A stretch of DNA of 64,000 nucleotides from Nitrosopumilus sp. (GCA_965249555.1 OZ252243.1:608001-672000), one strand, 5' to 3'. Counted from the first letter of the stretch, positions 13,030 to 41,925 are shown. Numbers and translations are program-made. Notes: generated by a model from the letters alone, not told the origin.

Positions 13030-13123
13030 GTTCCAGTGGTGTAGACCGGTCAAGCATTTTGCCCTTTCAAGGCAAAGATCCCGGGTTCAAAATCAAACGA
13101 TGAAAATCCCGGCTGGAGCACCA
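13030..13123 (+). tRNA. tRNA-Glu(TTC) with a 15-nt intron in the T-loop (13092-13106) and encoded CCA
   Basis: Cloverleaf; bulge-helix-bulge TTCA-aaa...TGAA-aat; splicing restores TTCAAAT. Confidence 0.9.
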
Positions 13124-13137
13124 AGATTTAATTACTA

Positions 13138-15490: not shown

Positions 15491-15500
15491 CTCATATCAC

Positions 15501-17597: not shown

Positions 17598-17600
17598 AAT

Positions 17601-19952: not shown

Positions 19953-20442
19953 GTGATGCGCCTCTATCAGTAATTATGATTTCACTATCTTGTGCAACAA
20001 ATGGCTTTACCTGAAGCTGGGCAGGAGTATAGATTAAACCCTCTTTGGAAAACGAAGATAGTTCATAGTCATTAGTCATGTATAGCGCATAAAATGGGCA
20101 TGCATCAACACAGAGACCACAGAAAACACATTTGCCATAATCAATCTGAGGCATGATTGCTTTTTTGTTGTGTTTATGCTCTTCTGGAACCTTTACCATT
20201 GCAATTGCTTCGGCAACCCCTTCACATGCAATGGAGCACAACTGACAGCCAGTACAGTGATCATGAAATAACAGATGGCGCCCCTTTAGTCCTGCAATTC
20301 CTACACCAGTTGATGGATCAAATTGATATCCATCTCCTACAAACTTTAGTTTCTCTTCAGGGTAGCGAAGTGTAAATCGCTTTACTGCAAGATGCTTAAC
20401 TCCCGAGTTTAATGCGCGGATAATACCTGTAGCAGTTCCCAT
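19945..20442 (-). CDS. nuoI: NADH-quinone oxidoreductase subunit I
   Basis: Two 4Fe-4S motifs (CTGCQLC, CVFCGLCVDACP). Confidence 0.95.
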   Translation of the reverse strand: MGTATGIIRALNSGVKHLAVKRFTLRYPEEKLKFVGDGYQFDPSTGVGIAGLKGRHLLFHDHCTGCQLCSIACEGVAEAIAMVKVPEEHKHNKKAIMPQIDYGKCVFCGLCVDACPFYALYMTNDYELSSFSKEGLIYTPAQLQVKPFVAQDSEIIITDRGASHG

Positions 20443-22940: not shown

Positions 22941-22942
22941 CT

Positions 22943-23539
22943 CTATCTTCCCTTTATTGCAAAGTCCTTTCGAAGTGGAGGCAAGTCTGCCCAATCTTCT
23001 GGCAAAAGTAATCTTCTGTTATCAGGATGGTTTTCAAAGAAAACACCAAACATTTCAAAAACTTCCCGTTCATGAAACTCTACACTGTAAAATATATCTC
23101 TAAGACTGGGAAGTTTTGTCGCGTCATTTCCAGGAATTGGATTTTCTTCTCGTTGGGCCCTAGTAGATAGGGCGATAATTTGTCTTGCTAATGAAGAATC
23201 AGAATAAGAGCCAATATGATAGACAACTTCAATCTCTTTGTCTTGCGGATAGTCTACGCCTGAAACAGATTCTACATGATCATAGTTTAATGCATCACGG
23301 ATGAACTCTGCAACGTCATGGATATTTTCCCGACTTGCACTAATTCCAATCCTATCTTCTTTAACAAATGTAACTGCAACTTTATCACCGAATTTTTCAG
23401 TTATCTTATCGGAAATTCCTTTCTCAAATGCAGGTAATTCTACTGATTCTTCTGGTTTTTTTGCTACGGGTTTAGGCGGAGGAGGTGTTTTTACTTCAGG
23501 TTTAGCATCAGCAGGAGGATTTTCAGTCTCGGCACTCAT
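22943..23539 (-). CDS. nuoC: NADH-quinone oxidoreductase subunit C
   Basis: EREVFEMFGVFFENHP..RRLLLP...PLRKDF motif. Confidence 0.95.
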   Translation of the reverse strand: MSAETENPPADAKPEVKTPPPPKPVAKKPEESVELPAFEKGISDKITEKFGDKVAVTFVKEDRIGISASRENIHDVAEFIRDALNYDHVESVSGVDYPQDKEIEVVYHIGSYSDSSLARQIIALSTRAQREENPIPGNDATKLPSLRDIFYSVEFHEREVFEMFGVFFENHPDNRRLLLPEDWADLPPLRKDFAIKGR

Positions 23540-24236
23540 TATACAAACTTCCTAGATGTCATACATTTTAGCGTTTATTTGGGATTTTATGTATATACCA
23601 GAAGATCGATATTGGGCAAGATCTGTCATTTTTCCAGATATTAGTATGTGATTTTACTATTAAAACAAATGGTTTTGAAAATTCAGCGATTGCTGGATCA
23701 GTTTTTGATAACGCTTCTTTGGTATTTCGGCATTGTGGAAACCATTCATTTTTGACACGTTTGCAGACTAGATTCATCTGTTTGGATCCATTGGAAATGC
23801 TTTGTGACAAGAAAAAAGAGAGGTCACAAACATGTGATGGTTCTCTCCAAAAATACCAAAAAACAAGATGTTAAAAAATGCAAAATCTGCAAACATCATT
23901 TTTTTCTTTTCTAATTATTAATTATGACAATTTCATCATCAAATTAGTAGAATATTTTATTTACACACAAAAGCTAAACCCCCATTTTAATTCTTCAAAA
24001 AAAATTTAGGATGTAATTACAGTTTCTTTATCAAGTTTTCTTTCAAGTTCCACTATAGTTGTTGAGTTAACATCTAAGAGTACATTTTACCAAATATAAA
24101 ATTTATCAGTATCTACTGAAAAAACGTGGGTTTTTCTTTTATGTCTACACCAGTTATTTGTGAAAGAGTAACAACAATATTATCTAAAGTGTAATCTGAT
24201 ATTCCTTCTTTAACAATGATTTGTAATTTTTTCAAG

Positions 24237-24467
24237 TTACTTCTCGACGATTGTCAGATCAACCAAATTGTTACCAAATTTCTTTTCAATCTCGTGTGAT
24301 ACTTTGATGGCATCTTCCCAACTTGAGAATGTTTTTAGTGCAGTATGATCATAACTTTTATCCTTTACAGTCTTGTTTTTAAAATCAGGCATTAAAAGTT
24401 GAGTTTTTTTGCATGAATCCTCATCAATACAAGTCAAACGAAATTCAAAAACAGGCATTAGAAACAT
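24237..24467 (-). CDS. Hypothetical protein
   Basis: 76-aa ORF. Confidence 0.4.
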   Translation of the reverse strand: MFLMPVFEFRLTCIDEDSCKKTQLLMPDFKNKTVKDKSYDHTALKTFSSWEDAIKVSHEIEKKFGNNLVDLTIVEK

Positions 24468-24971
24468 TCCTCCTTTAATTCCAAATAATAATGTAGGTTC
24501 AAACTAAACAATACATTCATCCCATAAACCCTCTCTAATTCTGTTTGGAATTGTTTGTTCTATTAACTGCTTTTCTATGAATACAGTTTTCATGATACAA
24601 ATCATCTGTTTCATTTAGATAGGATGTGGTTCATATATTTATGATGATCTTAATTAATATGCAGTTAAATATCAAACCAATTTTATTTCCTTATTATCAT
24701 AGGAATTATTTGAATATGGGTGTTCCAATCAGATACAAAACACCAATAAGAAATGACACATAGAATCTTGCTAGGGATTTTTATTTGTTTTGTAATCATT
24801 CCAATGAACAAAACATAATGAGATCCTTTGCTTTCTCTATTTGAATAATTTGAGAAATCGGTTAAAAATGAGAATTGATTATGTCCATGTCTCAATTATC
24901 TAATATTATAACTACAGGATCACATATAAAAATTTTAAAGATTTATACCATACTGATTATGTTTGTATAAT

Positions 24972-25946
24972 ATGAAATTTTTAGATGAAGATAGATTATT
25001 AGCAGAAGTAGAGTTAGAACCAACACAGGGTTCACGTTTCCAACCAACAGGATTCCCATCATTAGGATCTGCAGAATTCACAACTGTGGATAACGAAGGC
25101 AAAAATATTAACTCACTTTTAGTAGAATCTACACAATCAATGGCAAACAGATTAGAAGTTGTTTGTATGAATGATACAAAAACTGAACTTGTAGAAACAC
25201 TTTCTGATTTACCTGTAATAAAATTAAATGATTCAAATGGGAATTTTATAACAAATTCCATACTTGAAGCACATCGCATGAATTCATCATACCTACTAAA
25301 AGGAGAAAAAGGTAAATTGCTTCATAAGATATCAACCGATCTAGACATAACGGATAACAAAACACATGTTCCAAATATTTCAAAATTTGCAGAATTTGTT
25401 TTCAAATATGATACAAACTCCATTTTACACGGATTGTTTTTAGCTAACTCTGACATAGCAGGTGGTAGATACAAACTTACTCGTTCTCTTTCCTCATTTA
25501 TTGAAGCATCAAATATCAAAGTCAGTGTAAGTGGAGGAGTAAAGCTTGATCACATTGATCCAAAAGGTGGTGAAGGTGGAGCAGAAAAAGGATACGGGCA
25601 CATACCATACTCTAGAACAGAATACACAGCAGAATCAATAAAGGCATACTTTAGTATAGATTTGTCACTTATTCGTTCATATGGTCTATCTAATGTTGCA
25701 AATGAATTTCTATTGACATTTGCAATGTGGAAGATTCAATCTTTTCTTAAAACAGGACTACGACTTCGCACTGCATGTGATCTGAAAGTAAAAAATACCT
25801 TGGCTGTAACGTATCCAAACAACGTAACCATTCCAAGTCTAGATGAATTAGATACAGACTTGAGAAACAGTATAAAAAAATGTAAAAATGAAGGACTTTT
25901 TTGTACGGATCCGATAATCGTAGAACATATAGAGACAAAAAAGTAA
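24972..25946 (+). CDS. csb1: Type I-G Cas7 (Csb1)
   Basis: RFQPTGFP, LLVESTQSMANRLE, LEAHR and LRLRTACDL motifs. Confidence 0.93.
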   Translation: MKFLDEDRLLAEVELEPTQGSRFQPTGFPSLGSAEFTTVDNEGKNINSLLVESTQSMANRLEVVCMNDTKTELVETLSDLPVIKLNDSNGNFITNSILEAHRMNSSYLLKGEKGKLLHKISTDLDITDNKTHVPNISKFAEFVFKYDTNSILHGLFLANSDIAGGRYKLTRSLSSFIEASNIKVSVSGGVKLDHIDPKGGEGGAEKGYGHIPYSRTEYTAESIKAYFSIDLSLIRSYGLSNVANEFLLTFAMWKIQSFLKTGLRLRTACDLKVKNTLAVTYPNNVTIPSLDELDTDLRNSIKKCKNEGLFCTDPIIVEHIETKK

Positions 25947-25956
25947 TGGAACCAAA

Positions 25957-27429
25957 TTGTTTTGTATTAGAATCTGTTTTTTAAGTGGAGCTTATCATGC
26001 AACTCCATGGGGTAAACATGTCAACGAAGGAATTCCAGAATGGCCGCCATCTAGTTGGCGTCTTCTGCGTGCAATCATAGCGTCATGGAAAAACACATGT
26101 TCAGATATAACAGAGGATACAGTATGGCCAATTTTGCAAAAATTAATACAAGAACCCCCAGAGTATTATCTTCCAGATGCAAGTGTCTCTCACACACGTC
26201 ATTACATGCCAACATACAATAAACCAACATTAATCATGAATACATTTGTAGTTACGGGAGACAGACCGTTAGACATAATATGGAAATATGTGGAATTAGA
26301 AAAAAATGAAATTGATACTCTTGAAAAAATTTTAAAGAATATGCATTATTTTGGACGTGCAGAGTCATGGTGTACTGCAGGCATACAAGTAAAACCAAAT
26401 GAACCAAATTGTAGCAAGTTTGATGAACAGAGCATCCCAAAAGATGTAGAGTTGGTAAGAGTTTTGGTTCCAAACAAAGGTGTAAAATTTAAAGATTTTT
26501 CAGAACAATTCAAAGAATTAAAAAAAAATAATACAGACAACATAAGTGTAACTACTCAACAATTACAAGACAAGGGATTCATAGATCCGCCAGGTGCAAG
26601 ATGGATTCGCTATACCAGACCAGTGAATTGTTTTGAAGCAAAGACAAACGATACAGTCACAACTGAAACATTATCAAAAGTAACACTGATTCGTTATGCA
26701 GTAGTAAATACAGTTAGGCCAGAAATCAAAGACACATTACGCGTCGGAGATTTAGCAAGAACCGCTTGCATGTCCAGATACGGTAAAAAGAAAAATGGCG
26801 GTACATCAAAAATATTTTCAGGTAAAGATGAAAATAAAAAGCCGTTAGAAGGTCACAAACATGCTTTTTATCTACCAACATACGAGACACAGAATAAAGA
26901 GATAGATCATATTACCATTTTTGCAAAAGGTGGGTTTAATGCAGATGAGTTAGATGTATTATTCTCGTTGAAGAGATTATACCGATATGATTTGATGGAC
27001 ATACGCCTGATCTTTGAAGATTGTGGTACGGTTGATAATTTTACAGACATTCCCATATTTAAAAAAGAGCGTGTTTGGGTATCTACCACGCCGATGGTTC
27101 TTTCTAGACACATCAAATATCGCGGAACGGGATCAAACAAACATATGGTTGATGGTCCCAAAGAACAAATTTCTAATGAAATAAAACAAAGATACGATTC
27201 TTCATATAAAATTAAAGACATACAAATAGATGAAAAACCAACAAACATGCATAATACAAATATCAAACCATTTGATTTTTTCAGATGGCGAAATCATGGA
27301 AGAGTGGGAAGTGATAAGACATACAAAGTTAGATTAGAGTTTGAAGAACCTGTAAAAGGACCAATTACATTGGGATATGGATCACATTTTGGATTGGGCA
27401 TGTTTGTACCAGAGGATTATCATGAATAA
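25957..27429 (+). CDS. csb2: Type I-G Cas5/Cas6 fusion (Csb2)
   Basis: YHATPW, EWPPSSWRLLRA and GPITLGYGSHFGLGMF motifs. Confidence 0.93.
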   Translation: MFCIRICFLSGAYHATPWGKHVNEGIPEWPPSSWRLLRAIIASWKNTCSDITEDTVWPILQKLIQEPPEYYLPDASVSHTRHYMPTYNKPTLIMNTFVVTGDRPLDIIWKYVELEKNEIDTLEKILKNMHYFGRAESWCTAGIQVKPNEPNCSKFDEQSIPKDVELVRVLVPNKGVKFKDFSEQFKELKKNNTDNISVTTQQLQDKGFIDPPGARWIRYTRPVNCFEAKTNDTVTTETLSKVTLIRYAVVNTVRPEIKDTLRVGDLARTACMSRYGKKKNGGTSKIFSGKDENKKPLEGHKHAFYLPTYETQNKEIDHITIFAKGGFNADELDVLFSLKRLYRYDLMDIRLIFEDCGTVDNFTDIPIFKKERVWVSTTPMVLSRHIKYRGTGSNKHMVDGPKEQISNEIKQRYDSSYKIKDIQIDEKPTNMHNTNIKPFDFFRWRNHGRVGSDKTYKVRLEFEEPVKGPITLGYGSHFGLGMFVPEDYHE

Positions 27430-29782
27430 TTCACCAAACTACAAAAACTTTGAAGCTTTTTTTAAAAAAGCTACAGGATATGATCCCTATCCTTATCAGA
27501 TCAAACTTGCAGAATCCCAAATACCAGCAGTGATTAATGTACCTACAGGTGCAGGTAAGACAGAAGCTGCAATATTATCATTATGGATGTGGAGAAGGGA
27601 ATTAAAAGATGAAAATACACCAACCAGATTAATTTATTGTCTTCCCATGAGAGTGTTAGTGGAGCAGACCGTTCAGAGAGTGAGGAAATGGATCGAAAAT
27701 TTAGGATTAGATGATGTAATTGGAGTAATATCGCTTATTGGAGGTAGTAAGTATGAAGAATTCCAAAAACACCCCAGTAAAAAATACATCATCATAGGCA
27801 CACAAGATATGCTTATTTCAAGTGCACTTAATCGAGCATATGGAAAGAGTCCATATGCATGGCCCGCCTTTTTTGGTCTGTTTAATAATGACTGTATGTG
27901 GATCATGGATGAAATACAGATTATGGAAAATGGTCTCCCAACATCACTACAATTAGATGTATTTCGTAAGCAATTTAAAACATATGGATCATCAAAGACA
28001 GTTTGGATGTCTGCCACAATAAACAAAGATTGGCTGAAAACGATAAATTTTGACGGCATAAAGGATTCAGAGATTTGTAGTCTGGGTAAAGAAGATAAAA
28101 ATCATGAAGAGTTAAAAAAGCGCAACGAGGCAGCAAAAACACTTCACACCGCAGACATTGAATTTAAAAAATATGATAGCAAAGTTGTAAAATATCTGTA
28201 CAGTCTACACAAAAAAGGAACAACTACTGCCATCATGGTAAACACGGTTAAAAGAGCGCAAGAACTGTATGATCTATTTAAAAAAGAAGGATTAGAATGC
28301 AAATTAATTCATTCTAGGTTTAGAGAGAAAGACAGATCCGAATTAAATAAATGGATAAATAACTTGGGCAAAGAGGAAGTCATCATATCAACACAGGTAC
28401 TAGAAGCAGGAGTAGATATTTCTGTTCGTACAATGATCACAGAGATTGCACCATGGGCAAACATGGTACAACGTTTTGGAAGATGCAATAGAACTGGGGA
28501 ATTAGACCAAGCTGACATATACTGGATAGATCTACCTGACAAATTATTTGCACCATATGAAGAAAAAGATATGGAACTTGCAAAAGAAAAATTAAAAGAG
28601 CTGGACAACAAGTCAGTATCTCCAATTAATCTTCCAGACATCACAGAACAGAAAATTTTTGATGTCATACTACGAAAAAGAGATTTGGTGGATCTGTTTG
28701 ACAATGCATCTGACATATCTGGGAATTATGTAGATGCCTCAAGATTTGTACGTACAATTAAGCAGCAATTAAATGTCGAAGTATTTTGGAGAGATGATCT
28801 AACAAATAATGAAGAAGTGCAGAAACAAAACAGACATGAACGCAATGAGATATGCAGTGTTCCAATATATGATCTAAAAGAATTTCTAAAAAAAGCAAAA
28901 GTGGCATACTCGTGGAATAATGTAGAAGAGAAATGGGAGAGGATTAAAGCAGGTAAAATTTTTCCCGGACAAGTAGTTATGATAGATAGCAAAAAAGGAG
29001 GATATTCAAAAACATATGGATGGAAAAAAGAAATTGGAGAAAAAGTAGAGGCATGCCAAACATCAGATAAAAAAAATGATTCAAATGGATATGATGCACA
29101 ATCAGAATCAAAGAATCCAGTAACGCTAGAAGAACACACCAGTCATGTATCAGAAGAGATGAAAACCATACTAGCCAAATTGAAAATCATAGATAAGGAC
29201 ATCAAAGATATCATGACTACTGCTGCCAGATATCATGACATTGGTAAGATACACAATGTATTTCAAGACACATTAAAAAAAGGAATCATAGATAATGAGA
29301 TTGCCAAAACCAAAATATGGGCCAAGAGCCAAAAAATGAGTAAACATTCCATACCAGGTTTCAGACATGAGGTAGTCAGTGCACTAGTATATCTTAAACA
29401 ACCAGGCATAACACAAGATAAAAAATTGCAGAATCTTGTGGCATATCTTATAGTTTCACATCATGGAAAAGTTAGACTCTCATTAAGAGATGTAATTAAG
29501 AAAAAATATGAGGTAAAAGACCAGAAATATTTGTTAGGAATAAATGTAAATGGTGAGACCATACCAGAATTCTCTAGCGATGCAGTATCTGTCAAGGCAA
29601 CTGAAATAGACGTTTTATTAGCAAAAATTGGTCAAAACAATACATCAGAACCATCATGGGTAGAAAGAGCATTGTCTTTACGTGATGAGTATGGACCATT
29701 CCGTCTTGGATATCTTGAATCGTTACTCAGAGCAGCAGACACACTTGCCAGTCAAAAAGAGAGTGAAAGAAGATATGACTAG
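27422..29782 (+). CDS. cas3: Type I-G Cas3 (helicase with C-terminal HD nuclease)
   Basis: PTGAGKT, DEIQ, SAT and QRFGRCNR, followed by HDIGK...HHG at the C-terminus. Confidence 0.95.
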   Translation: MNNSPNYKNFEAFFKKATGYDPYPYQIKLAESQIPAVINVPTGAGKTEAAILSLWMWRRELKDENTPTRLIYCLPMRVLVEQTVQRVRKWIENLGLDDVIGVISLIGGSKYEEFQKHPSKKYIIIGTQDMLISSALNRAYGKSPYAWPAFFGLFNNDCMWIMDEIQIMENGLPTSLQLDVFRKQFKTYGSSKTVWMSATINKDWLKTINFDGIKDSEICSLGKEDKNHEELKKRNEAAKTLHTADIEFKKYDSKVVKYLYSLHKKGTTTAIMVNTVKRAQELYDLFKKEGLECKLIHSRFREKDRSELNKWINNLGKEEVIISTQVLEAGVDISVRTMITEIAPWANMVQRFGRCNRTGELDQADIYWIDLPDKLFAPYEEKDMELAKEKLKELDNKSVSPINLPDITEQKIFDVILRKRDLVDLFDNASDISGNYVDASRFVRTIKQQLNVEVFWRDDLTNNEEVQKQNRHERNEICSVPIYDLKEFLKKAKVAYSWNNVEEKWERIKAGKIFPGQVVMIDSKKGGYSKTYGWKKEIGEKVEACQTSDKKNDSNGYDAQSESKNPVTLEEHTSHVSEEMKTILAKLKIIDKDIKDIMTTAARYHDIGKIHNVFQDTLKKGIIDNEIAKTKIWAKSQKMSKHSIPGFRHEVVSALVYLKQPGITQDKKLQNLVAYLIVSHHGKVRLSLRDVIKKKYEVKDQKYLLGINVNGETIPEFSSDAVSVKATEIDVLLAKIGQNNTSEPSWVERALSLRDEYGPFRLGYLESLLRAADTLASQKESERRYD

Positions 29783-31865
29783 GATAACACTTGAGTGCAC
29801 ATCAACGTTACTATCAGACTATTTCAAAGCTCTAGGCATATTTCGAATCATGACAGAACAAAGCGATTCTAATATTACAGCATATTGGAGATATGATAAA
29901 TTTGTTTTGGAAACAAGCATGAGTGAAGAAGAAATTTTGGAGTTTATTTTAAAACAATACAAGCCGACGCCTATAATCACACCGTGGAGTTATAACAAAT
30001 ACATAAAAACAAAAGCATCAATCAAAACAAAATTAGATGCAAAAGATGATAGGTTTGAATCATATCGTACGGTAATACAAGAAATAGACAAAATTAATGA
30101 AATGTTCTGCAAGATTTTAAATCTAAATGAAATGAAAAAAGATACCATAACTAAAAAAACAAAGTTGTTATTTTTGCAACTATGTAGAAATAATTTTCCA
30201 GATGAAGCATTATCTTGGCTAGATGTAAATGTTGTGCTAGATGGAACAGATGCAAAATTTGCACCAATTACAGGATCGGGTGGAAATGACGGTAATTTTG
30301 ATATGGCTGAAAACTTTGTCAAGTATCTAATAGAGATGTTTGATCATAATGAAGAATCCAAAAACTTGCTGAAAGAATCACTCTTTGGAGGATCAAGTAA
30401 ATTGGAAGAAACAACTATGATAGGTCACAACCCAGATGGGAATAGTAGTGCAACATCAGGACAAGGTTTTGAAGGTAGATCACTGTCAAACAAGTGGGAT
30501 TACATACTGATGTTAGAAGGAATAATCTCGTTTGCAGGAAATCTGGCTAGACGTCAATCTCAAGGGAAAGGGAAAGCAGTATTTCCATTTACAACAGATG
30601 GCTCACATGTTGGCTATGCAACTGCATCAGATGATGAAAGGGATATCAGAGGTGAGATATGGTTGCCAATATGGAATAATCCTGCCACGTATAGAGAGAT
30701 CGCACATATGTTTAGTGAAGGACGGGTTCAGCTTAATGGAAAACAAGCTGGGACAGGAACAGAGTTTGCACGTGCCATAGTTAGTTTAGGTGTGGAAAGA
30801 GGGATATCGGCATTTCAAAGATTCAGTATTGTGCAAAGAAAAGGAGACGCATATTATTACATCAATGCAGGTAAAATACACACCGCAGATGAATCTGCAG
30901 TTTATTTATTAAGTGAGTTGGATAATTGGTATAATCCAATTTATCAAAAGAGCCAATCAAAAGAGAGTCCAGTGTCGATAAAACGGCATGTCAGAAATTT
31001 TGAAAACGAAGTGATGGAATTTTGCAAATATAGAAAAAAAGAACATCTCTTAAAAATAATGATTCAGGTTGGAAAGATAGAAAAACAGACATCATTGAGC
31101 AAAGAATTAAACCCATTACAGGAACTATCTGCGCAGTGGCTTGATGAGAGCTATGACAATTCAGTGGAATTTAGACTGGCAGCATCCATTGCATCAATAA
31201 AATCAGATAACAACGTAGGAGGAATACGAGAAAACTTGGAAGATATACAATATGGAGAAAGATGGGAACATAAAAAAGAATCAACAACATCTGTGTGGAA
31301 AGAAAATGATGATCTATTAAGGAATATGGGTCGTGTATTGCAAAGACGTGGAATAGATGGTAAAATAAAATCATTGGATGCCATACCAATTAAGGGGATC
31401 ATACCTGCAAGAATGGAGGATATTATAAAATTTCTCAGAGGAGAAGTAGATATGAGAAAAATAAATGACCTAGTTCTTCCGTTATCCATGATATCAATAA
31501 ATCAAAAGACAGAATATCCTTGGAAATCTATGAATAATGATGATATTTACGATATGCCAATACCAGAAGCATATATCATAATGAAGTTGATATGTCCTCC
31601 AGATAGAGATGAAAAAATCCCATACGACACATCAATACTAAATATGTTACATGCAGGAAGATTTGATGATGCTTATGCAAAAACAGCATACATACTACAT
31701 TCACACATGCGATCACCATTAAAATATTCAAAAATAAACGGCATGCCTAAAATATTGATTTCAGATATCATTAAAAAAAATATAATGGCGTCACTATTGT
31801 TTCCAATTTCAAAACATGATAGACAGAAAATGTTGCGTATGGTTACAGTTCAACAAAATTCATAG
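29775..31865 (+). CDS. csx17: Type I-G Cas8 (Csx17/Cas8g)
   Basis: YFKALG, YKPTPIITPW, GSGGNDG and GEIWLPIW motifs. Confidence 0.9.
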   Translation: MTRITLECTSTLLSDYFKALGIFRIMTEQSDSNITAYWRYDKFVLETSMSEEEILEFILKQYKPTPIITPWSYNKYIKTKASIKTKLDAKDDRFESYRTVIQEIDKINEMFCKILNLNEMKKDTITKKTKLLFLQLCRNNFPDEALSWLDVNVVLDGTDAKFAPITGSGGNDGNFDMAENFVKYLIEMFDHNEESKNLLKESLFGGSSKLEETTMIGHNPDGNSSATSGQGFEGRSLSNKWDYILMLEGIISFAGNLARRQSQGKGKAVFPFTTDGSHVGYATASDDERDIRGEIWLPIWNNPATYREIAHMFSEGRVQLNGKQAGTGTEFARAIVSLGVERGISAFQRFSIVQRKGDAYYYINAGKIHTADESAVYLLSELDNWYNPIYQKSQSKESPVSIKRHVRNFENEVMEFCKYRKKEHLLKIMIQVGKIEKQTSLSKELNPLQELSAQWLDESYDNSVEFRLAASIASIKSDNNVGGIRENLEDIQYGERWEHKKESTTSVWKENDDLLRNMGRVLQRRGIDGKIKSLDAIPIKGIIPARMEDIIKFLRGEVDMRKINDLVLPLSMISINQKTEYPWKSMNNDDIYDMPIPEAYIIMKLICPPDRDEKIPYDTSILNMLHAGRFDDAYAKTAYILHSHMRSPLKYSKINGMPKILISDIIKKNIMASLLFPISKHDRQKMLRMVTVQQNS

Positions 31866-31945
31866 ACAGAAATAGAGTTACAATATAAAGATTCAACATT
31901 TTTACAAGTTGATGAATTTTATAGATTTACAGACTTGTTAAGCAA

Positions 31946-34900
31946 TCTTCAATGAAGCCATAATTTTTTGTTATGGCAATCAGTGTAGATACTTTGTTCC
32001 ACATATCAACTCTACTAGGCTTCAAGAGAGTTGTAACTTTATCGTTACAGAAATTTGGTGGTCATGTGCCATATCAGAACGCCCTGATGTTATGCTTCAA
32101 TGGGGCTGTAACTTTATCGTTACAGAAATTTGAGAATAAATCCAGTAATAAATGGATTACCAGTTCCAGCGCTTCAATGGGGCTGTAACTTTATCGTTAC
32201 AGAAATTTTATGCGCTATGTGTTATGTTTGTCATACTCATGTAGCTTCAATGGGGCTGTAACTTTATCGTTACAGAAATTTCACAAATTGTAATACAATA
32301 AGGGTACTATAACGGTTGCTTCAATGGGGCTGTAACTTTATCGTTACAGAAATTTTATGCGCTATGTGTTATGTTTGTCATACTCATGTAGCTTCAATGG
32401 GGCTGTAACTTTATCGTTACAGAAATCACTCGGATGTTGTTTTCCCTGCACGTCTGATATACAGAGCTTCAATGGGGCTGTAACTTTACCGTTACAGAAA
32501 TTGGCTCCAGCTTTGGTAATCTCAAGAATGATCTCGCCACGCTTCAATGGGGCTGTAACTTTATCGTTACAGAAATCACTCGGATGTTGTTTTCCCTGCA
32601 CGTCTGATATACAGAGCTTCAATGGGGCTGTAACTTTACCGTTACAGAAATTGGCTCCAGCTTTGGTAATCTCAAGAATGATCTCGCCACGCTTCAATGG
32701 GGCTGTAACTTTATCGTTACAGAAATGGCTTAATCAAAGATGTTATCTCAATGTCCGTATATTATCAACTTCAATGGGGCTGTAACTTTATCGTTACAGA
32801 AATATAAAGAGGAAGCTGAGGGTTTCACAATCGATTTTCTAGCTTCAATGGGGCTGTAACTTTATCGTTACAGAAATTTTGTGAGGTTTGAAGTTTGAAG
32901 TGGACAGTTTCCCAAGCTTCAATGGGGCTGTAACTTTATCGTTACAGAAATTCTGTTATCTTTGATTTTTAGTTTGATTTTATCTTCTTCAGCTTCAATG
33001 GGGCTGTAACTTTATCGTTACAGAAATCTAAAAATGTTTTGACTGCTGTCGGCGTGTAAGCCGGGCTTCAATGGGGCTGTAACTTTATCGTTACAGAAAT
33101 TTCCATCAGCTCCAGTTTCATCTTTACCAAATGCTTTGCTTCAATGGGGCTGTAACTTTATCGTTACAGAAATTTCTCCAGCCGGATATTGATAACCGTG
33201 AGCCTTCATGCTTCAATGGGGCTGTAACTTTATCGTTACAGAAATTTCGAAAAGCCAATTAGTAAACTTGGTACGACTCACCTGCTTCAATGGGGCTGTA
33301 ACTTTATCGTTACAGAAATTGTAAGTTACAGGATAACGCAATAAATCTATGCTCAGCTTCAATGGGGCTGTAACTTTATCGTTACAGAAATACTTTATCA
33401 CGATTACGGTTTAGATAGTCAAGGACAAGCTTCAATGGGGCTGTAACTTTATCGTTACAGAAATAAATGAATCAGCGAATAGTTCGACATCAAATTTCTT
33501 GCTTCAATGGGGCTGTAACTTTATCGTTACAGAAATCTGATGATAACATCTTTGCTGAATTTCATGTTCATGCTGCTTCAATGGGGCTGTAACTTTATCG
33601 TTACAGAAATCATGAGTGATTTGTTGTCCTCGAGTTGGTCCTCCATGTGCTTCAATGGGGCTGTAACTTTATCGTTACAGAAATGATACAACTTGAAAAT
33701 ATTGCAAAAGCAGAAGCACGCTTCAATGGGGCTGTAACTTTATCGTTACAGAAATTGGAAAATCAAGCTTCAAAATTAATGGCTACAACATCGCTTCAAT
33801 GGGGCTGTAACTTTATCGTTACAGAAATTTCCCTATGGACCTTCCTTTGCAGGTCCTTGTATTTCTCAGCTTCAATGGGGCTGTAACTTTATCGTTACAG
33901 AAATGCGGCAGCCAATCCCGACGGCTTGGCTTCCATCATAGACGCTTCAATGGGGCTGTAACTTTATCGTTACAGAAATGTAGTAATTGCATTCATCTGC
34001 ATTTGACTTGCACCACCGCTTCAATGGGGCTGTAACTTTATCGTTACAGAAATTTCGGCTTTGAAAATTGCTAATGCTTTAGATTTTTTGCTTCAATGGG
34101 GCTGTAACTTTATCGTTACAGAAATCTTGATGTCTCAAACAGCAAGAGTTCAAACTAGATTAGCTTCAATGGGGCTGTAACTTTATCGTTACAGAAATAT
34201 AGAACGGTTATCAGGTCAAAGAGCGTTAAAAGTAGCTTCAATGGGGCTGTAACTTTATCGTTACAGAAATTTGGATAGCGATTGGATAGCTATGACAAAG
34301 CAACTGGAAGCTTCAATGGGGCTGTAACTTTATCGTTACAGAAATCTGCATCAGTAAGAAATAGTAGATTGTCTACAGCCGTTGCTTCAATGGGGCTGTA
34401 ACTTTATCGTTACAGAAATGATGGATCAGGCTATACCAGGGGTATTGGGTCAGGGATGCTTCAATGGGGCTGTAACTTTATCGTTACAGAAATTTAGTGT
34501 TACTGAAAATTCTAGGTTAGGATGGTCCAAAGCTTCAATGGGGCTGTAACTTTATCGTTACAGAAATTTTGAAAAAGAAACTTTGAAAGAAGACAAAGAG
34601 AGAGCGCTTCAATGGGGCTGTAACTTTATCGTTACAGAAATCTTAGGTTGTAGAACTCAAAGAACAGCTGACATTATCGCTTCAATGGGGCTGTAACTTT
34701 ATCGTTACAGAAATGTCAGAATTAGTTTGAGTAAAAACACTACCTTTTCTCGCTTCAATGGGGCTGTAACTTTATCGTTACAGAAATTTAGCATACAAGA
34801 GATAGCCTCCGATACCAACCGCTCCTGGCTTCAATGGGGCTGTAACTTTATCGTTACAGAAATTTCTCAAAATGAAAAAAATTGTTAACAATGTCCAAGC

Positions 34901-35538
34901 TTCAATGGGGCTGTAACTTTATCGTTACAGAAATTTTGAGCCTTTCAATTACACTAGTTAAAATTTTAGATGCTTCAATGGGGCTGTAACTTTATCGTTA
35001 CAGAAATCACCAAGTCGTGCAATACCTCCACCAGGTCCTCCTGGCTTCAATGGGGCTGTAACTTTATCGTTACAGAAATTTGATTGTTTCGACAAGATTC
35101 CAACTGACACCTAGATCCTGGAGGCTTCAATGGGGCTGTAACTTTATCGTTACAGAAATTAGGATATCAGCGCCACGACTTAGGCCCGCTGCTAAATTTG
35201 TGCTTCAATGGGGCTGTAACTTTATCGTTACAGAAATATGGTATACAAGCAACATATCCGTACGAAGTGTGTATTGTCTACGCTTCAATGGGGCTGTAAC
35301 TTTATCGTTACAGAAATATCGAATTTAGAAAACTTGTCGCAATTAGAACATTTATGCTTCAATGGGGCTGTAACTTTATCGTTACAGAAATTTTTATAGA
35401 GCTATAAAGCCTAATATAAACCCTAAATGCTTCAATGGGGCTGTAACTTTATCGTTACAGAAATTTCTGTTTGTTCTTTTTTAGCCTTGTCAAGACTACT
35501 TTGCTTCAATGGGGCTGTAACTTTATCGTTACAGAAAT
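31946..35538 (-). CRISPR. Type I-G array: 49 repeats (two degenerate at the left, trailer end) and 48 spacers of 35-44 nt
   Basis: 36-bp repeat ATTTCTGTAACGATAAAGTTACAGCCCCATTGAAGC (minus strand) with CTGTAAC/GTTACAG stem; orientation from the ATTGAAGC 3' end, degenerate left repeats and AT-rich leader next to cas2. Confidence 0.98.
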
Positions 35539-35690
35539 GGGGTCATTTTCTCTAAAACCGTTATCATGTTTTTGTTTCTAGTTGTTTTTCAATTGTTATC
35601 TGACGATTCAAGCAAATCATAGACATTGCTGTGGTATGATATTTTTTTCATATATATTATATCTGCGAGAGTATTATCATACTTACCTTG
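35539..35690 (-). promoter_or_regulatory. CRISPR leader
   Basis: AT-rich non-coding stretch between cas2 and the first perfect repeat, with a TATA-like element. Confidence 0.7.
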
Positions 35691-35691
35691 A

Positions 35692-35801
35692 CTTGTAACC
35701 CATCGCATTTTCTTTGCCCTATATCACTTGCGCAAAGCTCTTGATAGGGCTTCTTGTCAGGCATCTTGTAACCCATCGCATTTTCTTTGCCCTATATCAC
35801 T
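35692..35801. repeat. 37-bp direct duplication flanking a 36-nt insert
   Basis: CTTGTAACCCATCGCATTTTCTTTGCCCTATATCACT at 35692-35728 and 35765-35801. Confidence 0.95.
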
Positions 35802-36079
35802 ACGGATCTCTCCCTTTCCGTATCCATTTGTGCCCCTATTACTGATATTCTTTCTTTACTTTTATTTAAGGAGCCAAGATTAATTATCAAAATTTTATCT
35901 TCAACCATATTCATTATATCCTCTAACTCTTCTTTCATAATTATTATTTCCTTGTAGTTAAGATCACACATAAACACAGAATATTGTACAGGTTCCCCAT
36001 ACCCCTTCATCTTTTTATGTATCTGTATCAATCGTTGCGGATCATGTATATCGTAACATACAAAGTATCTATTGCGCAA
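35792..36079 (-). CDS. cas2: Cas2
   Basis: YFVCYDIHDP.RL...GYGEPVQYSVF; TTG start assumed. Confidence 0.93.
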   Translation of the reverse strand: MRNRYFVCYDIHDPQRLIQIHKKMKGYGEPVQYSVFMCDLNYKEIIIMKEELEDIMNMVEDKILIINLGSLNKSKERISVIGAQMDTERERSVVI

Positions 36080-36083
36080 ACCT

Positions 36084-37769
36084 TCATCTTGTCCTAAATG
36101 CAGGATATGTTGGAATCTCTCCAAGAATATGTCTGGCAAGTAATCTTGTTTGAGTTTCCATTATGCGTTTATAGCTGGCAGCATAACCCAAAAGTGGATG
36201 AATAACAACAGAATCCATACGTCTCTCATATGCAGTTATCACTGTAGAACGCCCTCTATTGGTAAGGTTTGTTCCAAAGTCGGTCTTTATCAAATCTGAT
36301 TCATTGATTTCACCGTTATTGATAAGCGTAATACATGTAGAATCTGCTACAATTGGTCTGAATTCCTCGATCATATCAAGTGCAAGTGCGGGTTTCCCAT
36401 ATTTTGGCATATGAAGAAATCCCAGATAGGGATCAAGACCTACTCTACTAACTGTAATCATTGCATTCCTTGTCAACATTGCATATAGAAATGACATAAT
36501 TGCATTAACTGGATCCTTTGGAGGTCTTCTGTTTCTTCCATTAAAATCAAAAGCCGTTGATTCAGATTTTATCATGCCATTAAATTCTGAAAAATATATG
36601 CGTGCAGCCATTCCCTCTATTCCAAGAAGAGTATCATATTGTTTTACAGTACATGCACGTTGTGCAAGTATGTTCATCTTGTGTATCTTATCTATAGGGG
36701 GAGATTTGTGGTTTCTACGTAGCATTGTCATGCAATTTTTTATTTTTCCAAACACCATCTGACGAGCTATCCCAATGGATGCATTTTTAACATCATATTT
36801 TTTATGCTGTTTAATTCGCAGTTCTATATTTTTATGTGAAAGTCCTGTAGTAATACCCGTAAACCATCCTCCATATGTCATGTAACAGATAGGAATATTT
36901 CGCTTGCTTAACTCCCTTATTGCTTGTGTTGTGATCTGGATATTTCCAAATAGTGTAATTTCTGAAATGTCTATCAATCTAATCTTCTTTATTATTGTAT
37001 CTTTTAATTTTACATGAATGCAATCATTTGATTTTGTAATATGTGCTCCCTGTTCCTGTATGTATACTGGTATGGTGTCATTTCTTATTGGATACATTCT
37101 GCGTATCTGGTCCTTGTTTATTTGATGAGTCTCATCTGATAACAAATTGACTTCATCAGGTAGACATATTCCCACAAGGGAACATCTTGGACATTTCGGA
37201 CTGTCAACCAACGGAGCAGGTATTGTATATGACTTTGCCATTTCTTTCATCTCTTTGATCATCTGTAATGTTTTTTTTACTGTTTGATCATCTAGATTAA
37301 TTTCTATTCTTTGCTTTGATGCAATATAATAAACAAAACCCTTTGTACATGTGTATCCATTTGCACGTAGTAAAAGTCCTTGAGCACATACTTGTATGAT
37401 GTGATCATCATATGTTCTGTTAGGAGTATTGGGAGTGCTGCCACGTTTGTATTCTATTGGTGTTGCAACGTTTCCATCTAATTCAAGTAGATCTGTTTTA
37501 GATATCAATCCAAGCTCTGTATCAGACAAAGTAACTGATCTGGCATGAATCTTTTCTACTGTGATATTATCTTTATCGGTCTTTTGTTCAAGCATTTTTC
37601 CTCCTGACGGTTTGTCTACATTTCTATGCTGATATTTGCCGTCTATCACATCTTTGTTGGATTCAAATTCCCCTTGAACCCATTCCATATATGCAAGTCG
37701 TTTACAATATACGAATTGTGTTAGCATTCTTACTGGTATAAGATTTGAATTAACACTTGATGTACTCAT
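36084..37769 (-). CDS. cas1: Cas4-Cas1 fusion
   Basis: YCKR, PIEYKRG and CPRCSLVGIC (Cas4); GIEG.AAR.YF, RNRRPPKDPVNA and DMIEEFRP (Cas1). Confidence 0.95.
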   Translation of the reverse strand: MSTSSVNSNLIPVRMLTQFVYCKRLAYMEWVQGEFESNKDVIDGKYQHRNVDKPSGGKMLEQKTDKDNITVEKIHARSVTLSDTELGLISKTDLLELDGNVATPIEYKRGSTPNTPNRTYDDHIIQVCAQGLLLRANGYTCTKGFVYYIASKQRIEINLDDQTVKKTLQMIKEMKEMAKSYTIPAPLVDSPKCPRCSLVGICLPDEVNLLSDETHQINKDQIRRMYPIRNDTIPVYIQEQGAHITKSNDCIHVKLKDTIIKKIRLIDISEITLFGNIQITTQAIRELSKRNIPICYMTYGGWFTGITTGLSHKNIELRIKQHKKYDVKNASIGIARQMVFGKIKNCMTMLRRNHKSPPIDKIHKMNILAQRACTVKQYDTLLGIEGMAARIYFSEFNGMIKSESTAFDFNGRNRRPPKDPVNAIMSFLYAMLTRNAMITVSRVGLDPYLGFLHMPKYGKPALALDMIEEFRPIVADSTCITLINNGEINESDLIKTDFGTNLTNRGRSTVITAYERRMDSVVIHPLLGYAASYKRIMETQTRLLARHILGEIPTYPAFRTR

Positions 37770-38112
37770 ATGTTTTGAAATTATTTTTCATATAAATAAA
37801 TCAATATATTGATGAGATAATTACTAAATGAGATAGATACAGTATCAATTATTGCTGTTTGAATTTCAGGATTATGTAACAATTCATCTCTCTCTAATTC
37901 TTGATTGAATTGCACTTGAAGAATATGAGTAATACTGAATTACTTTTTTGATTTCTTTAGACTTTTCTCGTATCTCTCAAATACTTTATCATCTCTTTTG
38001 CTCCATGGTTACTCTTCTTTGAGTTTGGTTTCTTCCATAGTTATATTATAACTATTTTGTTATTCAATTGCTTAAGCTTTGGTGATTTTGAAAATATAGG
38101 TCTCGATACCCG

Positions 38113-38637
38113 TTATACAAACTTTCTAGCCTTCATTCTCTTGATTTTTTCTTGCAACAAAATACATCCTTGGATGAGAGTTTCAGGTCTAGGCGGACAG
38201 CCAGGAACATAGACATCGACTGGAATCACTCCGTCAATTCCCGGAAGTACATTGTATGAATCAAAATACAACCCCCCAGTAATTGCACAAGCTCCCATAG
38301 CAATTACATACTTTGGTTCTGGCATTTGATCATAAACTAGTCTGAGACGTGGTGCCATTTTTCTTGTAATAGTTCCTTGAACAACAATTAGATCACATTG
38401 TCTAAGTGATCCAAATGCCTCAATGATACCAAATCTTTCAACATCATATCTAGGACTTGATGCTGCACCAAATTCAACACTGCAGCAAGCCGTTTCAATG
38501 TGGACAGGCCAGAGTGACCAAATTCTACCCCAATTGATGGCATAGCCCAATGGTTTGCCGATTGCCCGCTCTAAAATGTCCCCTAGCTTTCCTACAAAGA
38601 CATTTGCATTTTCTGGCGTTACTAAATCATTAAGCAA
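38113..38637 (-). CDS. nuoB: NADH-quinone oxidoreductase subunit B
   Basis: TACCSVE, MGACAITGG and VPGCPPRPE motifs. Confidence 0.96.
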   Translation of the reverse strand: MLNDLVTPENANVFVGKLGDILERAIGKPLGYAINWGRIWSLWPVHIETACCSVEFGAASSPRYDVERFGIIEAFGSLRQCDLIVVQGTITRKMAPRLRLVYDQMPEPKYVIAMGACAITGGLYFDSYNVLPGIDGVIPVDVYVPGCPPRPETLIQGCILLQEKIKRMKARKFV

Positions 38638-38676
38638 TCTTATCCCCTATCTCATAAATGCAATTTATATAAAAAA

Positions 38677-39051
38677 CTACCATATTCTTCGCCTCCCAGA
38701 CTGATACAATGCAAATGCCATTGCGCCAAACATTATAGCTAAAAATCCCATCATTGGCAAAGTTGCACTCTTTGGAAGTTCCAAAAGGGCACTTCCCCAG
38801 GCATACAGGAAGATTGCCATGACATCAAAGACTACAAACATCAGAATGTAGGGATAATACTGCATCATAAAGTGAGTCCGGCCTTCGCCTGACGGGACTT
38901 GACCGCATTCCATTGGTAAAAATTTCACAGGATTGTTTATTTTTCGAGGAGAAATCATCCTAGAAATAACTAAAGCCGGAGCCATAGCTGCTACGGCAAA
39001 TCCAAACATCAATACAACAATACTGTAATTGCCCGCTAATTCTCCGACCAA
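38677..39051 (-). CDS. nuoA: NADH-quinone oxidoreductase subunit A
   Basis: PMECGQ and YYPYILMFVVFDV motifs. Confidence 0.95.
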   Translation of the reverse strand: MVGELAGNYSIVVLMFGFAVAAMAPALVISRMISPRKINNPVKFLPMECGQVPSGEGRTHFMMQYYPYILMFVVFDVMAIFLYAWGSALLELPKSATLPMMGFLAIMFGAMAFALYQSGRRRIW

Positions 39052-39102
39052 TTTAGCTTTTCACTACAATTTTTGTATATAATTCAATCGTTTCAAAGGT
39101 TC

Positions 39103-40025
39103 TCCCATACGAAATCGTCTCCAACCCTACTGAGGACACTTACTAGCGTGCTTTGCTGAATCAGGACATCTCAGATATGCTTTGCATCTTATACTTTCGT
39201 TGTGTCAGTTCATGATTTTGTGTACGATACACTTTCAGAATTTGTTAGCATGTACCCGGATTATTGCAAGCATCCGGTCTTGCAGCTGCCACCTTTGCCT
39301 TTTGTTTTCCTCTTCTCTTTGCAATTCTGAAATAGAATGATTCCATTCTTTCATCAAATCGTACTATAGTATTTGCAGCCTCTACCATTGCGTTACGTAA
39401 CCATGCAGAACCCCTCTTTGTTATTCCGCCTCCTCGGTGCACATCTGCGCTGTCCCTGTGCGATGGTGCAAGTCCTGCATATGAGACTAGTTTTTCTGCT
39501 GTTGCAAATCTGCTGATGTCAACTATCTCTGAAATTATTGTCAATGCCGTGACATAGTTTATTCCAGGAATGGTCATTAGCAGTCTTGTTTTCTCATCCT
39601 CATTGCTAATTGTTGCAATCTTTATCTCAATTGTGTTGATCTGTTTTTGCATCATATCTATGCTGTCAAGATATGCATCCATTGCCATTCTGTCAACCTC
39701 ACTCAGATTAATTTCATGCAACCATCGTACTCCTTTTTGCGAGAATGTCTTTGTGGGTGTAATCATATTTTGCAAGTATTGCATAAATCATGTTTTTGTG
39801 TTTTGATACATTTCGCACGCGATTCAGTCTGGTTCTTACCAGACTGTATAGGTCTCTATAGTATTTTTCTGGTACGAATGAGCTGTACACCATGTCTGCT
39901 CTTAGCAAGTCTGCCAATACGTCTGAATCAAGTTTGTCGTTTTTTATCTTTGCCTGTGCAATTATCTTGGTCTTTGCAGGATGTGCGAGAACTGTATCAA
40001 TTCCATGGTCTTCTAGTGTGTCATG
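39103..40025 (-). mobile_element. IS110-family element, frameshifted and 5'-truncated transposase plus 3' non-coding end
   Basis: LMTIPGI, SYAGLAP..RDS and ITKRGSAWLR motifs; KIKNDKLDS..LADLLR fragment; end sequence repeated at 56507-56645. Confidence 0.85.
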
Positions 40026-40364
40026 GAGTCTAATCCAATAGTTGGCTTTGTTGTAATGATAGGACTATCCATTATGTTTAGTTTAGGACAGAATACTTAC
40101 GAATCAGAAGAATATGATCTGGTGGTTATTGGATTTGAGGATTTGCTAACAAAATGCAACAGCATACACAGTTTTGAATCCTATAATTCCTACATTGATC
40201 ATCATAATTCTTTCATTGATGAATATGGGGAATTTAATAAATCTGAAGGCGATACTGAAATTGTTTCAACAGATTACCAAATTGCAATTTTGATAGAAGA
40301 ACTGATTCAATGTGAGAATAAGGAAGAATCTAGGTTGATAAACTATGGTGAGCTATCAGGATAG
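40023..40364 (+). CDS. Hypothetical protein with N-terminal TM/signal segment
   Basis: 113-aa ORF. Confidence 0.5.
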   Translation: MESNPIVGFVVMIGLSIMFSLGQNTYESEEYDLVVIGFEDLLTKCNSIHSFESYNSYIDHHNSFIDEYGEFNKSEGDTEIVSTDYQIAILIEELIQCENKEESRLINYGELSG

Positions 40365-40910: not shown

Positions 40911-41925
40911 ATGCCTACCTTATTAACAACCAGAGATCGAATTAGTTTTGAGGATAAAATACAGACAAAAGCAGTCAATACGCAGAAAACATCCCAGTCA
41001 TCAGTAAGAAACTTTGAGAGATTTTGCAAGGAAAAGTATGACAAATCAATGGAGGAGATAATATCAGAATATCACAAAGTTGAGATGGATTTAATCTATG
41101 AATCACTGCAAGAATGGATAAACTGGAACAATACAAAGGTTCATTCAAACAGCATTCCTACACTGTTTTCATATCTCAAAACATACCTAAGATATCACAA
41201 GATAAGAATTACAAAAGAGGATGTGGTAAAACAGCTGAGTTTACCTCACAAGGTCAAAGAGGAGAAATATCCATTGACAAAAGAGGAGATCAGAAGCCGA
41301 TGATTTTTTGTTTGATATTGAACATGATTACCTGGGAGAAATATCCATTGACAAAAGAGGAGATCAGAAGGATACTGCAAGTATGCAATAAGAATAACAC
41401 GATCAAGATTCTGGCACAGTTATCAAGTGATATGAGAAAAGGGGAATTGCTCCAGCTGAAAAAAAGAGATCTTGGACAAAAAAGAATCATGGTAAATATT
41501 CCTGCAAGTATTACAAAGACAAAAAGATCAAGGGTGACTTTTTTTAGCAGAGAGATAATACCTTTACTGATGCCGATTCTTAGAAGGCTCTGGCTGATGA
41601 TGACAGAGTGTTTTTTCGTGGAAAGCTAAATCCTGCAAACATAAGCAATCACTACCAGCTGATTCTGACAGAGTATCTAAAGAGGACAGGGCTTGATCAA
41701 AAATATGAATCCGGACGTCACAAGATAACAACACACAGCTTTAGGGCATTTTTTATCACAAAGGTGTCTCTTCATGATCCAAACCTTGCAAAGTACTTTG
41801 CAGGACAGGAACAAACAAGAGACCTGCTGATGTATGACATATTGACAGCAGATGAAAAGTGAGAAAACTATATCAAATTTGAGCCTGATTTGTTGATATG
41901 GGATTCAAATAAAAGCGTAAGGTAA
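40911..41925 (+). pseudogene. Tyrosine recombinase/integrase pseudogene
   Basis: MRKGELLQL, TKTKRSR and HSFRAFF motifs in three frames; disrupted by a 74-nt duplication-insertion and further lesions. Confidence 0.88.
41261..41370. repeat. Exact 36-bp direct duplication flanking a 38-nt insert
   Basis: GGAGAAATATCCATTGACAAAAGAGGAGATCAGAAG at 41261-41296 and 41335-41370. Confidence 0.95.

Follow-up and report, generated by a model that had tools for sequence, protein, structure and literature searches.

A type I-G CRISPR-Cas locus inside the nuo operon of a Nitrosopumilus genome, at a nuoB-nuoC junction that recurrently holds variable genes

In a 64,000-nucleotide (nt) window of a Nitrosopumilus sp. 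genome (GCA_965249555.1, OZ252243.1:608001-672000), the nuo operon is split between nuoB and nuoC by an insert (23556-38112) that is a complete type I-G CRISPR-Cas locus. The junction that it occupies is a recurrent hotspot of variable genes, used in at least nine congeneric genomes; the island itself is an ordinary type I-G system, and its location is unusual but recurrent. The reading that we favour, and regard as probable, is that the locus sits in a recurrent nuoB-nuoC hotspot and was imported by homologous recombination with a relative. Throughout, coordinates are positions in the window unless marked as genome C1, G000 denotes the genome that carries the window, and the G-numbered genomes are congeneric species genomes (n = 151, one genome per species). 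The 2.23-Mb genome of G000 contains archaeal amoA, and the host is therefore an ammonia-oxidising archaeon.

The recurrence of the split emerges from a survey in which nuoB was located in 135 of the 151 genomes and nuoC in 134, the coordinates of both being compared by eye. Among the 128 genomes with both genes on the same contig, nine have nuoB and nuoC farther apart than the nuoC open frame explains, 118 are clearly intact, and one (G058, with a distance of 332 nt) is undecided, as are six further genomes that have the two genes on different contigs or in which only one of the two was found. The nine gaps are filled differently. Besides the 14.6 kb of type I-G CRISPR-Cas in G000, there is a homologous I-G island of 18 kb in G162; 10.2 kb in G154 with HEPN, DUF4238, Schlafen/AlbA_2 and metallophosphatase genes and the transposase of an insertion sequence (IS), IS6; 6.3 kb in G141 with DUF3800 and an IS66 transposase; 3.7 kb in G160 with IS6 and IS630 transposases; 2.4 kb in G017 with a ParE toxin; 2.1 kb in G018 with a TnpB/IS605 gene; and ~0.2 kb of non-coding sequence in each of G002 and G152. 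The cargo is mostly defence genes or IS elements and differs by genome, and two marks of a defence or flexible-genome hotspot were found: constant core flanks around varied cargo, and exchange via homologous flanks. Even the two I-G islands are unevenly related: nucleotide identity is 88% over cas4/1-cas2, and the array repeats are of one family; cas3 and cas8 show 65-70% identity, and G162 has an inverted effector module and a cas4/1 pseudogene. On the nuoB side of the gap, flanks are clearly related between G017 and G154 (60%) and between G002 and G152 (83%) only; the G002/G152 pair compared with the G017/G154/G160 group gives 40-48%, no better than background.

The ends of the G000 insert are defined by a short duplication. 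All nuo genes in the window lie on the minus strand, and the 17-mer TTATACAAACTTCCTAG (written on the plus strand) occurs at 23539-23555 with no mismatch and at 38113-38129 with one (16 of 17 bases identical); there is no third match in the window and none in 100 shuffles, and at one mismatch or fewer the same two sites stand alone in the whole 2.23-Mb genome. The left copy reads CTAGGAAGTTTGTATAATG on the minus strand; it retains the TAATG stop/start overlap with nuoC and also holds an AGGA purine run upstream of the nuoC ATG. The copy in use at the end of nuoB reads GCT AGA AAG TTT GTA TAA, and its sole difference from the left copy is AGA in place of AGG. An earlier reading of this DNA from its sequence alone (the sequence-only reading) had described the last 17 bp of nuoB at both island ends, one synonymous base apart, and had taken the left copy for the ancestral junction. 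The genome-wide search bears out the former, and the left copy is indeed of the ancestral type, as it carries the AGG found in 19 of 19 intact same-genus junctions examined. The closest relative, G007 (~92.6% nucleotide identity), aligns to 12202-23555 and to 38113-39082; on the G007 side these two blocks overlap by 17 nt (G007 1270852-1270868), which align to both window copies; hence the duplication is exactly 17 bp and the insert is as delimited above. The 14.6-kb insert is absent from G007, and the site is also empty in G158. Just past the nuoB stop, 38100-38112 is similar to the beginning of nuoC at 9 of its 13 bases (binomial p = 0.004), with ACG in place of ATG.

At the other end, the sequence directly upstream of nuoC is related in all nine split genomes. 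A leader of ~100 nt is 83-92% identical among G000, G017, G162 and G154, and within it a 36-nt motif (23553-23588 in G000) is identical in G017, G162 and G154 and differs by two bases in G000; G018, G002 and G152 carry a variant of the motif, and divergence is much greater in the leaders of G160 and G141. The 22-nt core, searched at one mismatch or fewer, occurs in 7 of the 151 genomes, all of them split, and a reversed control pattern gave none. The TATA-like sequence that the sequence-only reading had placed near 23575-23600 is present as a TATATA hexamer at 23592-23597 and is common to other split genomes. A conserved ATG 25 nt downstream of this box opens a four-codon mini open reading frame (ORF), MYD[I/D]* (23566..23552), which stops at a TAG inside the orphan nuoB tail, 12 nt before the nuoC ATG; the spacing from box to ATG is compatible with an archaeal promoter and a leaderless start. 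A second copy of the leader motif in G017 (G017:C1:234683-234704; 41 nt, 97.6% identical) forms the end of a ~1.9-kb insertion that truncates an unrelated gene, and its similarity ends at ...GACGACTA, exactly where the orphan nuoB tail starts in the nuoC leader. Because the motif recurs in G017 and stops at the orphan, the leader probably represents an inserted element's end fused to a 17-bp target duplicate. The 26-nt core of the leader had no match in metagenome contigs and none in viral contigs.

The split does not follow the phylogeny. In a DNA tree of aEF-2 built from 41 genomes (G000, the eight other split genomes and 32 intact ones picked for closeness and completeness from the 118), G000 is sister to the intact G007 (98/91) within a seven-genome clade of three split and four intact members; a second clade contains G017 and G162, and a third G018, G002 and G152. 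The split state requires at least seven changes on this tree. The approximately unbiased (AU) test rejects a single clade for the nine split genomes (log-likelihood difference 654, p = 0.0028) and likewise rejects a clade of G000, G154, G162 and G017, which have a near-identical leader (p = 2e-41). Comparison of island-bearing with island-free relatives, which had been proposed alongside the sequence-only reading, thus sets the empty sites of G007 and G158 beside nine split congeners scattered on the tree.

Within G000, the genes that flank the insert are mosaic. At the nuoA-nuoB sites that separate G162 from G158, the counts are 28 G162-like to 6 up to ~nt 140 of nuoA and 17 to 65 thereafter (p = 7e-10, the minimum over all breakpoints, uncorrected for the scan), and the result is similar with G017, G007 and G160. 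Between ~nt 140 of nuoA and a point close to the nuoB end, the identity of G000, in windows, is 89-98% to G158/G160/G007 and 81-92% to G162. Affinity may switch once more at the very end of nuoB, where the last 8 informative sites are 6 to 2 G162-like as against 16 to 64 before them (p = 0.003, post hoc); the AGA codon of the in-use copy is common to G162, G002 and G152. On the far side of the insert, the leader and nt 1-80 of nuoC are G017-like, and the rest of nuoC is 93-96% identical to G158/G160. Foreign-like sequence is thus found in the first ~130 nt of nuoA and its promoter and possibly, judging from these few sites, in the last tens of nuoB bases. Such mosaic flanks point to acquisition by homologous recombination with crossovers at gene ends. 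The sequence-only reading had supposed that the island arrived by recombination together with a different nuoA-nuoB allele; it was right in kind and wrong in extent, since the main part of nuoB and the 3' part of nuoA side with G158, G160 and G007. Separate gene trees for nuoAB and nuoC-N had been suggested at the time; those of nuoAB and nuoCD (26 rows each) show no supported conflict for G000.

It is useful to set out the history that these observations suggest. One ancient insertion would have duplicated ~17 bp of the nuoB-nuoC junction, leaving a promoter and the old ribosome-loading sequence before nuoC; the operon would have become two transcription units, nuoAB and nuoC-N, and the gap a tolerated landing pad. 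The G000 island would have come not by site-specific integration but by homologous recombination with a relative of the G017/G162 clade that already carried an I-G island there, with one crossover close to nt 80 of nuoC and another within the final tens of nuoB bases, and a separate exchange would have replaced the nuoA promoter and first ~130 nt together with the 94-kb region upstream. In this history nuoC-N would now be transcribed from the leader; cas4/1, cas2 and the array, which lie downstream of nuoAB on the same strand, may receive read-through; and one spacer of the array (spacer 7/9, described below) would have its origin in a foreign nuoA allele, the source probably being chromosomal DNA that entered from a relative.

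Several points weigh against this history. The donor was not found among the genomes compared: the identity of the foreign-like tracts to G017/G162 is 87-92%, short of near-identity, which means that the exchange is old or its donor unsampled, and sorting of old polymorphism could give a similar mosaic. The crossover at the 3' end of nuoB rests on eight informative sites chosen after seeing the data. Leader homology in G160 and G141 rests on shorter blocks, as these leaders are more diverged, and the survey of split and intact junctions took one genome per species and was read by eye, with G058 and six other genomes undecided. How the first insertion came about, and that the leader acts as a promoter, that read-through occurs and that the CRISPR system is active, are all inferences.

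The least improbable alternative is that a CRISPR-Cas integrative element entered the 3' end of nuoB site-specifically, with the 17-bp repeats as attachment (att) sites and an integrase since lost or acting in trans, for instance that of the pseudogene at 40911-41629. Direct repeats bound the insert exactly, the nuoB 3' end is rebuilt, the site is empty in relatives, and a tyrosine-recombinase pseudogene lies 2.3 kb from the nuoB start; moreover, thaumarchaeal elements are known to sit in the 3' ends of protein genes with short att sites, some of them with CRISPR-Cas, as far as the accessible part of the published account goes (PMC6563490). Yet the integrase expected within an integrated mobile genetic element is missing from all nine inserts (no PF00589 integrase or other recombinase among the scanned ORFs of the G000, G017, G018, G160, G154, G141 and G162 inserts), the repeats and leader are common to genomes with unrelated cargo, and the flanking gene ends are mosaic. 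The integrase near nuoA is itself frameshifted here, fused to an HsdS fragment in G160, and beside nuoA in three of the nine split genomes. We consider such an integration an unlikely source of the G000 island, and it may still describe the original ancient event. A small integrase-like ORF of G017 was set aside, as it has no Pfam match and no similarity to the nuoA-side integrase (E = 0.29). Other kinds of mobile element fare no better: for a transposon or IS composite, the G000 island offers neither an inverted copy of the end motif (none of the 36-nt motif at nine or fewer mismatches) nor a transposase in its scanned ORFs, and a casposon is not supported, as Cas1 is present as a CRISPR Cas4/1 fusion, no terminal inverted repeat was found, there is no PolB among the scanned ORFs, and the repeat is 17 bp long, the target-site duplication of casposons being 13-14 bp (PMC8464041).

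A somewhat less probable alternative still is that the split is ancestral to the genus and inherited vertically, the intact operons having arisen by repeated precise deletion between the repeats. The repeats would allow an excision that restores TAATG, and the split-bearing G018/G002/G152 clade branches deep; however, 118 of 128 genomes (G058 being undecided) would need many separate precise losses, species with 10-20% difference between their genes have the 36-nt motif in identical form, and the flanks of G000 switch affinity. The arrival of the island with a whole foreign nuoA-nuoB allele accounts for the foreign-like first ~130 nt of nuoA and for the AGA codon shared with G162, G002 and G152, and is made very improbable by the affinity to G158/G160/G007 from ~nt 140 of nuoA to near the nuoB end and by trees that lack supported conflict. 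Finally, a misassembly joining unrelated regions, which the sequence-only reading had named among the findings that would undo it, is hardly credible, and nothing was found in its favour. Logan contigs of three runs bridge 35772-39124, and with it the right junction, with 0 differences; these runs come from one study and at most two samples and may be the data from which the assembly was made. They also contain every sampled word of the left junction (k-mer share of 22900-24100, 0.96-1.00), and the same architecture recurs in eight other genomes. Homologous import into a pre-existing hotspot remains the reading that we prefer.

The contents of the island (Table 1) are those of a type I-G system throughout, as the sequence-only reading had proposed. 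In an NCBIfam scan all six cas genes fall in type I-G, each above its curated cut-off: Cas8g/Csx17 matches TIGR04113 with 525 bits against a cut-off of 150 over residues 39-723 of 727; Cas3g matches TIGR02621 with 705 bits and has its Cas3_HD domain at residues 592-771, after the helicase; the Cas4-Cas1 fusion matches NF049935 with 731 bits against a cut-off of 560, with Cas2 and the array adjoining; and Csb1 (Cas7g) and Csb2 are both above their cut-offs. The scan of the island region covered 13 of 28 ORFs of at least 70 amino acids, the other 15 overlapping cas genes or the array on other frames. Among these 13 there is no separate cas5, cas6, cas11 or further cas family and no integrase or transposase, and to that extent the absence of mobility genes that had been claimed for the island holds; non-autonomous repeats are present, and an IS110-derived element and the frameshifted integrase lie just outside. 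The locus is probably active. At the nuoC-proximal edge, GC content drops to 0.27-0.30 (23500-25000), and this edge holds two small unknown ORFs (23568..23810 and 24237..24467), a 398-nt segment (24233-24630) with one further copy elsewhere, and a repeat of ~185 nt (24720-24907) that resembles a miniature inverted-repeat transposable element and has at least 25 genomic copies.

Table 1. Features at the split nuo operon and its immediate surroundings, in window coordinates
Feature	Position	Strand	Remarks
nuoC	22943..23539	-	NCBIfam/Pfam NuoC
Orphan 17-bp nuoB 3' end	23539..23555	-	AGG type; TAATG overlap kept
Shared nuoC leader	23553..23643	-	36-nt motif, TATA-like hexamer, mini-ORF; putative promoter
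AT-rich island edge	23644..24962		Small ORFs and repeats
csb1/cas7g	24963..25946	+	TIGR02570 1.2e-24, PF09617
csb2 (Cas5-Cas6 fusion of type I-G)	25957..27429	+	TIGR02165 1.9e-55, full length
cas3g helicase, C-terminal HD nuclease	27377..29782	+	TIGR02621 2.4e-211; Cas3_HD
cas8g/csx17	29682..31865	+	TIGR04113 3.6e-157
CRISPR array	32019..35538	-	48 repeats of 36 nt, 47 spacers (44 distinct)
Spacer 7	32502..32540	-	Identical copy is spacer 9, 32652-32690
CRISPR leader adjoining cas2	35539..35791	-	77% identity over 168 nt to G162 array flank
cas2	35792..36139	-	TIGR01573, PF09827
cas4-cas1 fusion (Cas4g/Cas1g)	36084..37769	-	NF049935 7e-220
nuoB-proximal island edge	37770..38112		nuoC-start-like 38100-38112
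nuoB	38113..38637	-	In-use 17-mer copy at 38113-38129 (AGA)
nuoA	38677..39051	-	First ~130 nt and promoter G162/G017-like
IS110-derived 950-nt element	39097..40046		Just upstream of nuoA TATA box
Frameshifted tyrosine-recombinase (integrase) gene	40911..41629	+	PF00589; nuoA-proximal end of 94.4-kb region

The terminal repeat of the array, at 32019, is degenerate (four mismatches), which places the array leader at the opposite end, beside cas2, and means that the array is read on the minus strand like nuoAB. Three pairs of spacers are duplicates (3=5, 6=8 and 7=9), through internal tandem duplications. The sequence shared by spacers 7 and 9 matches nuoA at 38946-38984 in 30 of 39 positions and encodes the same peptide; it is the best partial self-match of any spacer in an ungapped genome scan. 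All nine mismatches to the resident nuoA fall at codon position 3, and this spacer therefore appears to derive from a foreign, diverged nuoA allele. In crRNA (CRISPR RNA) orientation, the flank of the nuoA site on the protospacer-adjacent motif (PAM) side is TTC, as read from one diverged traceable protospacer; a TTN PAM is reported for type I-G in the accessible part of a study of that type (PMC9638904). Three of the mismatches lie within the first eight PAM-proximal bases, and with nine in all the spacer should not direct cutting of the resident nuoA. The spacer stands near the old end of the array, and its nuoA match lies inside the tract that is recombinant in G000. No sequence within three mismatches of it was found in the 150 other congeneric genomes, the best alleles reaching 33 of 39 or 88% over 40 nt, and metagenome contigs held no exact copy. 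The whole array had no match among phage records, and a match of spacer 39 to G144/G108 (29 of 35 bases in AT-rich sequence) was judged to be noise.

G000 has a second CRISPR-Cas system, of type I-B (genome C1:1610010-1626000; cas4, cas1b, cas6, cas8b, cas7, cas5 and cas3). Its array has several dozen repeats of 30 nt, cas4 and cas1 are separated by an IS1595 transposase, and IS66 copies lie close by. Two I-G spacers (33685-33719 and 35008-35043) overlap I-B spacers, one pair sharing 21 exact bases and the other differing mainly at every third base, which indicates that the invaders sampled by the two systems were the same or related. One spacer between two perfect I-G repeats forms an orphan mini-array (genome C1:1884688-1884798), which lies 1.24 Mb from the cas genes in ordinary chromosomal context, between a GNAT acetyltransferase gene and an unknown ORF. 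In G157 the nuoB-nuoC junction is intact, yet an I-G locus with very long arrays lies 5-20 kb upstream of nuoA (C1:1632000-1645239), beyond the first conserved neighbouring gene.

It is informative to place the locus beside systems already described. The type I-G (formerly I-U) systems of Geobacter sulfurreducens and Thioalkalivibrio, in so far as the accessible part of their description shows (PMC9638904), are alike in Cas8g/Csx17, Csb1, Csb2, a Cas3g with a C-terminal HD domain, a Cas4-Cas1 fusion, Cas2 and an array of 36-nt repeats; here, in contrast, csb1-csb2-cas3-cas8 are convergent with cas4/1-cas2 and the array, the host is an archaeal ammonia oxidiser, and the locus lies inside the nuo operon. 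Among 68 thaumarchaeal integrated elements, 14 lie within protein genes, in their 3'-distal parts, and type I-B CRISPR-Cas is present in some, according to the accessible part of Krupovic et al. 2019 (PMC6563490), in which the words nuo and NADH do not occur. The likeness to such elements extends to short direct repeats, a rebuilt gene 3' end, an empty site in relatives and CRISPR-Cas in some; here, however, none of the nine inserts has an integrase, the system is I-G and not I-B, and the site is used by unrelated cargo. Our literature searches returned no description of a nuo-operon hotspot in these archaea, although supplements, which lay outside that reading, could hold one.

Core defence hotspots of Pseudomonas aeruginosa are said to have conserved flanking genes and to exchange their contents through these flanks. 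Such hotspots, together with the flexible islands of marine ammonia-oxidising archaea (bioRxiv 10.1101/2024.04.23.590705, whose accessible part does not mention nuo or NADH), resemble the nuoB-nuoC junction in their constant core flanks, variable defence-rich cargo, patchy spread and mosaic flanks. The nuoB-nuoC hotspot differs in lying inside an essential, translationally coupled operon, with its own conserved leader that putatively restores downstream expression. Haloarchaea that mate between species reportedly gain CRISPR spacers from chromosomal genes of the related species. Spacer 7/9 is comparable in matching a housekeeping gene of a congener, not a virus; it differs in that the source gene is the array's own neighbour, of which the resident allele differs at nine synonymous sites. 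One can imagine, as a doubtful extension of these observations, that a mobile element left the leader behind as a transportable cassette for expression, in which the TATA box and leaderless mini-ORF may replace the lost translational coupling and so turn the essential nuo operon into a docking site for defence systems that is safe, heritable and open to exchange, and that the array's memory of a foreign nuoA reflects CRISPR policing of inter-lineage recombination there.

The arrangement suggests that an essential, coupled operon can tolerate, keep and pass on large inserts if a promoter comes with the insert end and the start context of nuoC is preserved by the duplicated tail. It also provides a defined natural insertion site for ammonia-oxidising archaea, which are not yet genetically manipulable, and a case from nature in which genes pass between species by way of conserved flanks; the foreign-nuoA spacer is a tangible sign, open to testing, that relatives exchange chromosomal DNA.

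The surroundings of the split operon are variable as well. Upstream of nuoA, synteny with G007 breaks just before the nuoA TATA box and resumes 94.4 kb on, at genome position 741525, so that nuoAB forms a 970-bp conserved islet between two variable regions. The intervening region (39083 to genome C1:741524) is absent from G007, G158 and G157. The IS110-derived element at its nuoA end encodes the C-terminal half of a transposase only and has nine near-full-length genomic copies, including this one, and ~30 partial copies; contig depth rises ~50-fold at its edge. Homologues of the integrase adjoin nuoA in G160 and G154, and beyond the pseudogene lie DUF3800, MazF, a TIR-domain protein, Fic and an IS66 transposase. 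A long tandem-repeat run with a period of ~492/984 nt occupies genome 680-706 kb. On the other side, downstream of the nuo genes, a 4.6-kb stretch between syntenic blocks (7616-12201) lacks a G007 counterpart. Across the genus, the N-terminal extension of NuoC is Pro/Ala-rich and highly variable, with frames from ~190 amino acids to 336 (G002 and others), and extra nuoB genes occur far from the operon at G072:C1:802726, G133:C1:639736, G069:C1:568223 and in G134 (six places). The six copies of G134 include some that are 77-89% identical only, and the lone nuoB of G072 and of G133 lies 86-91 kb upstream of an intact operon.

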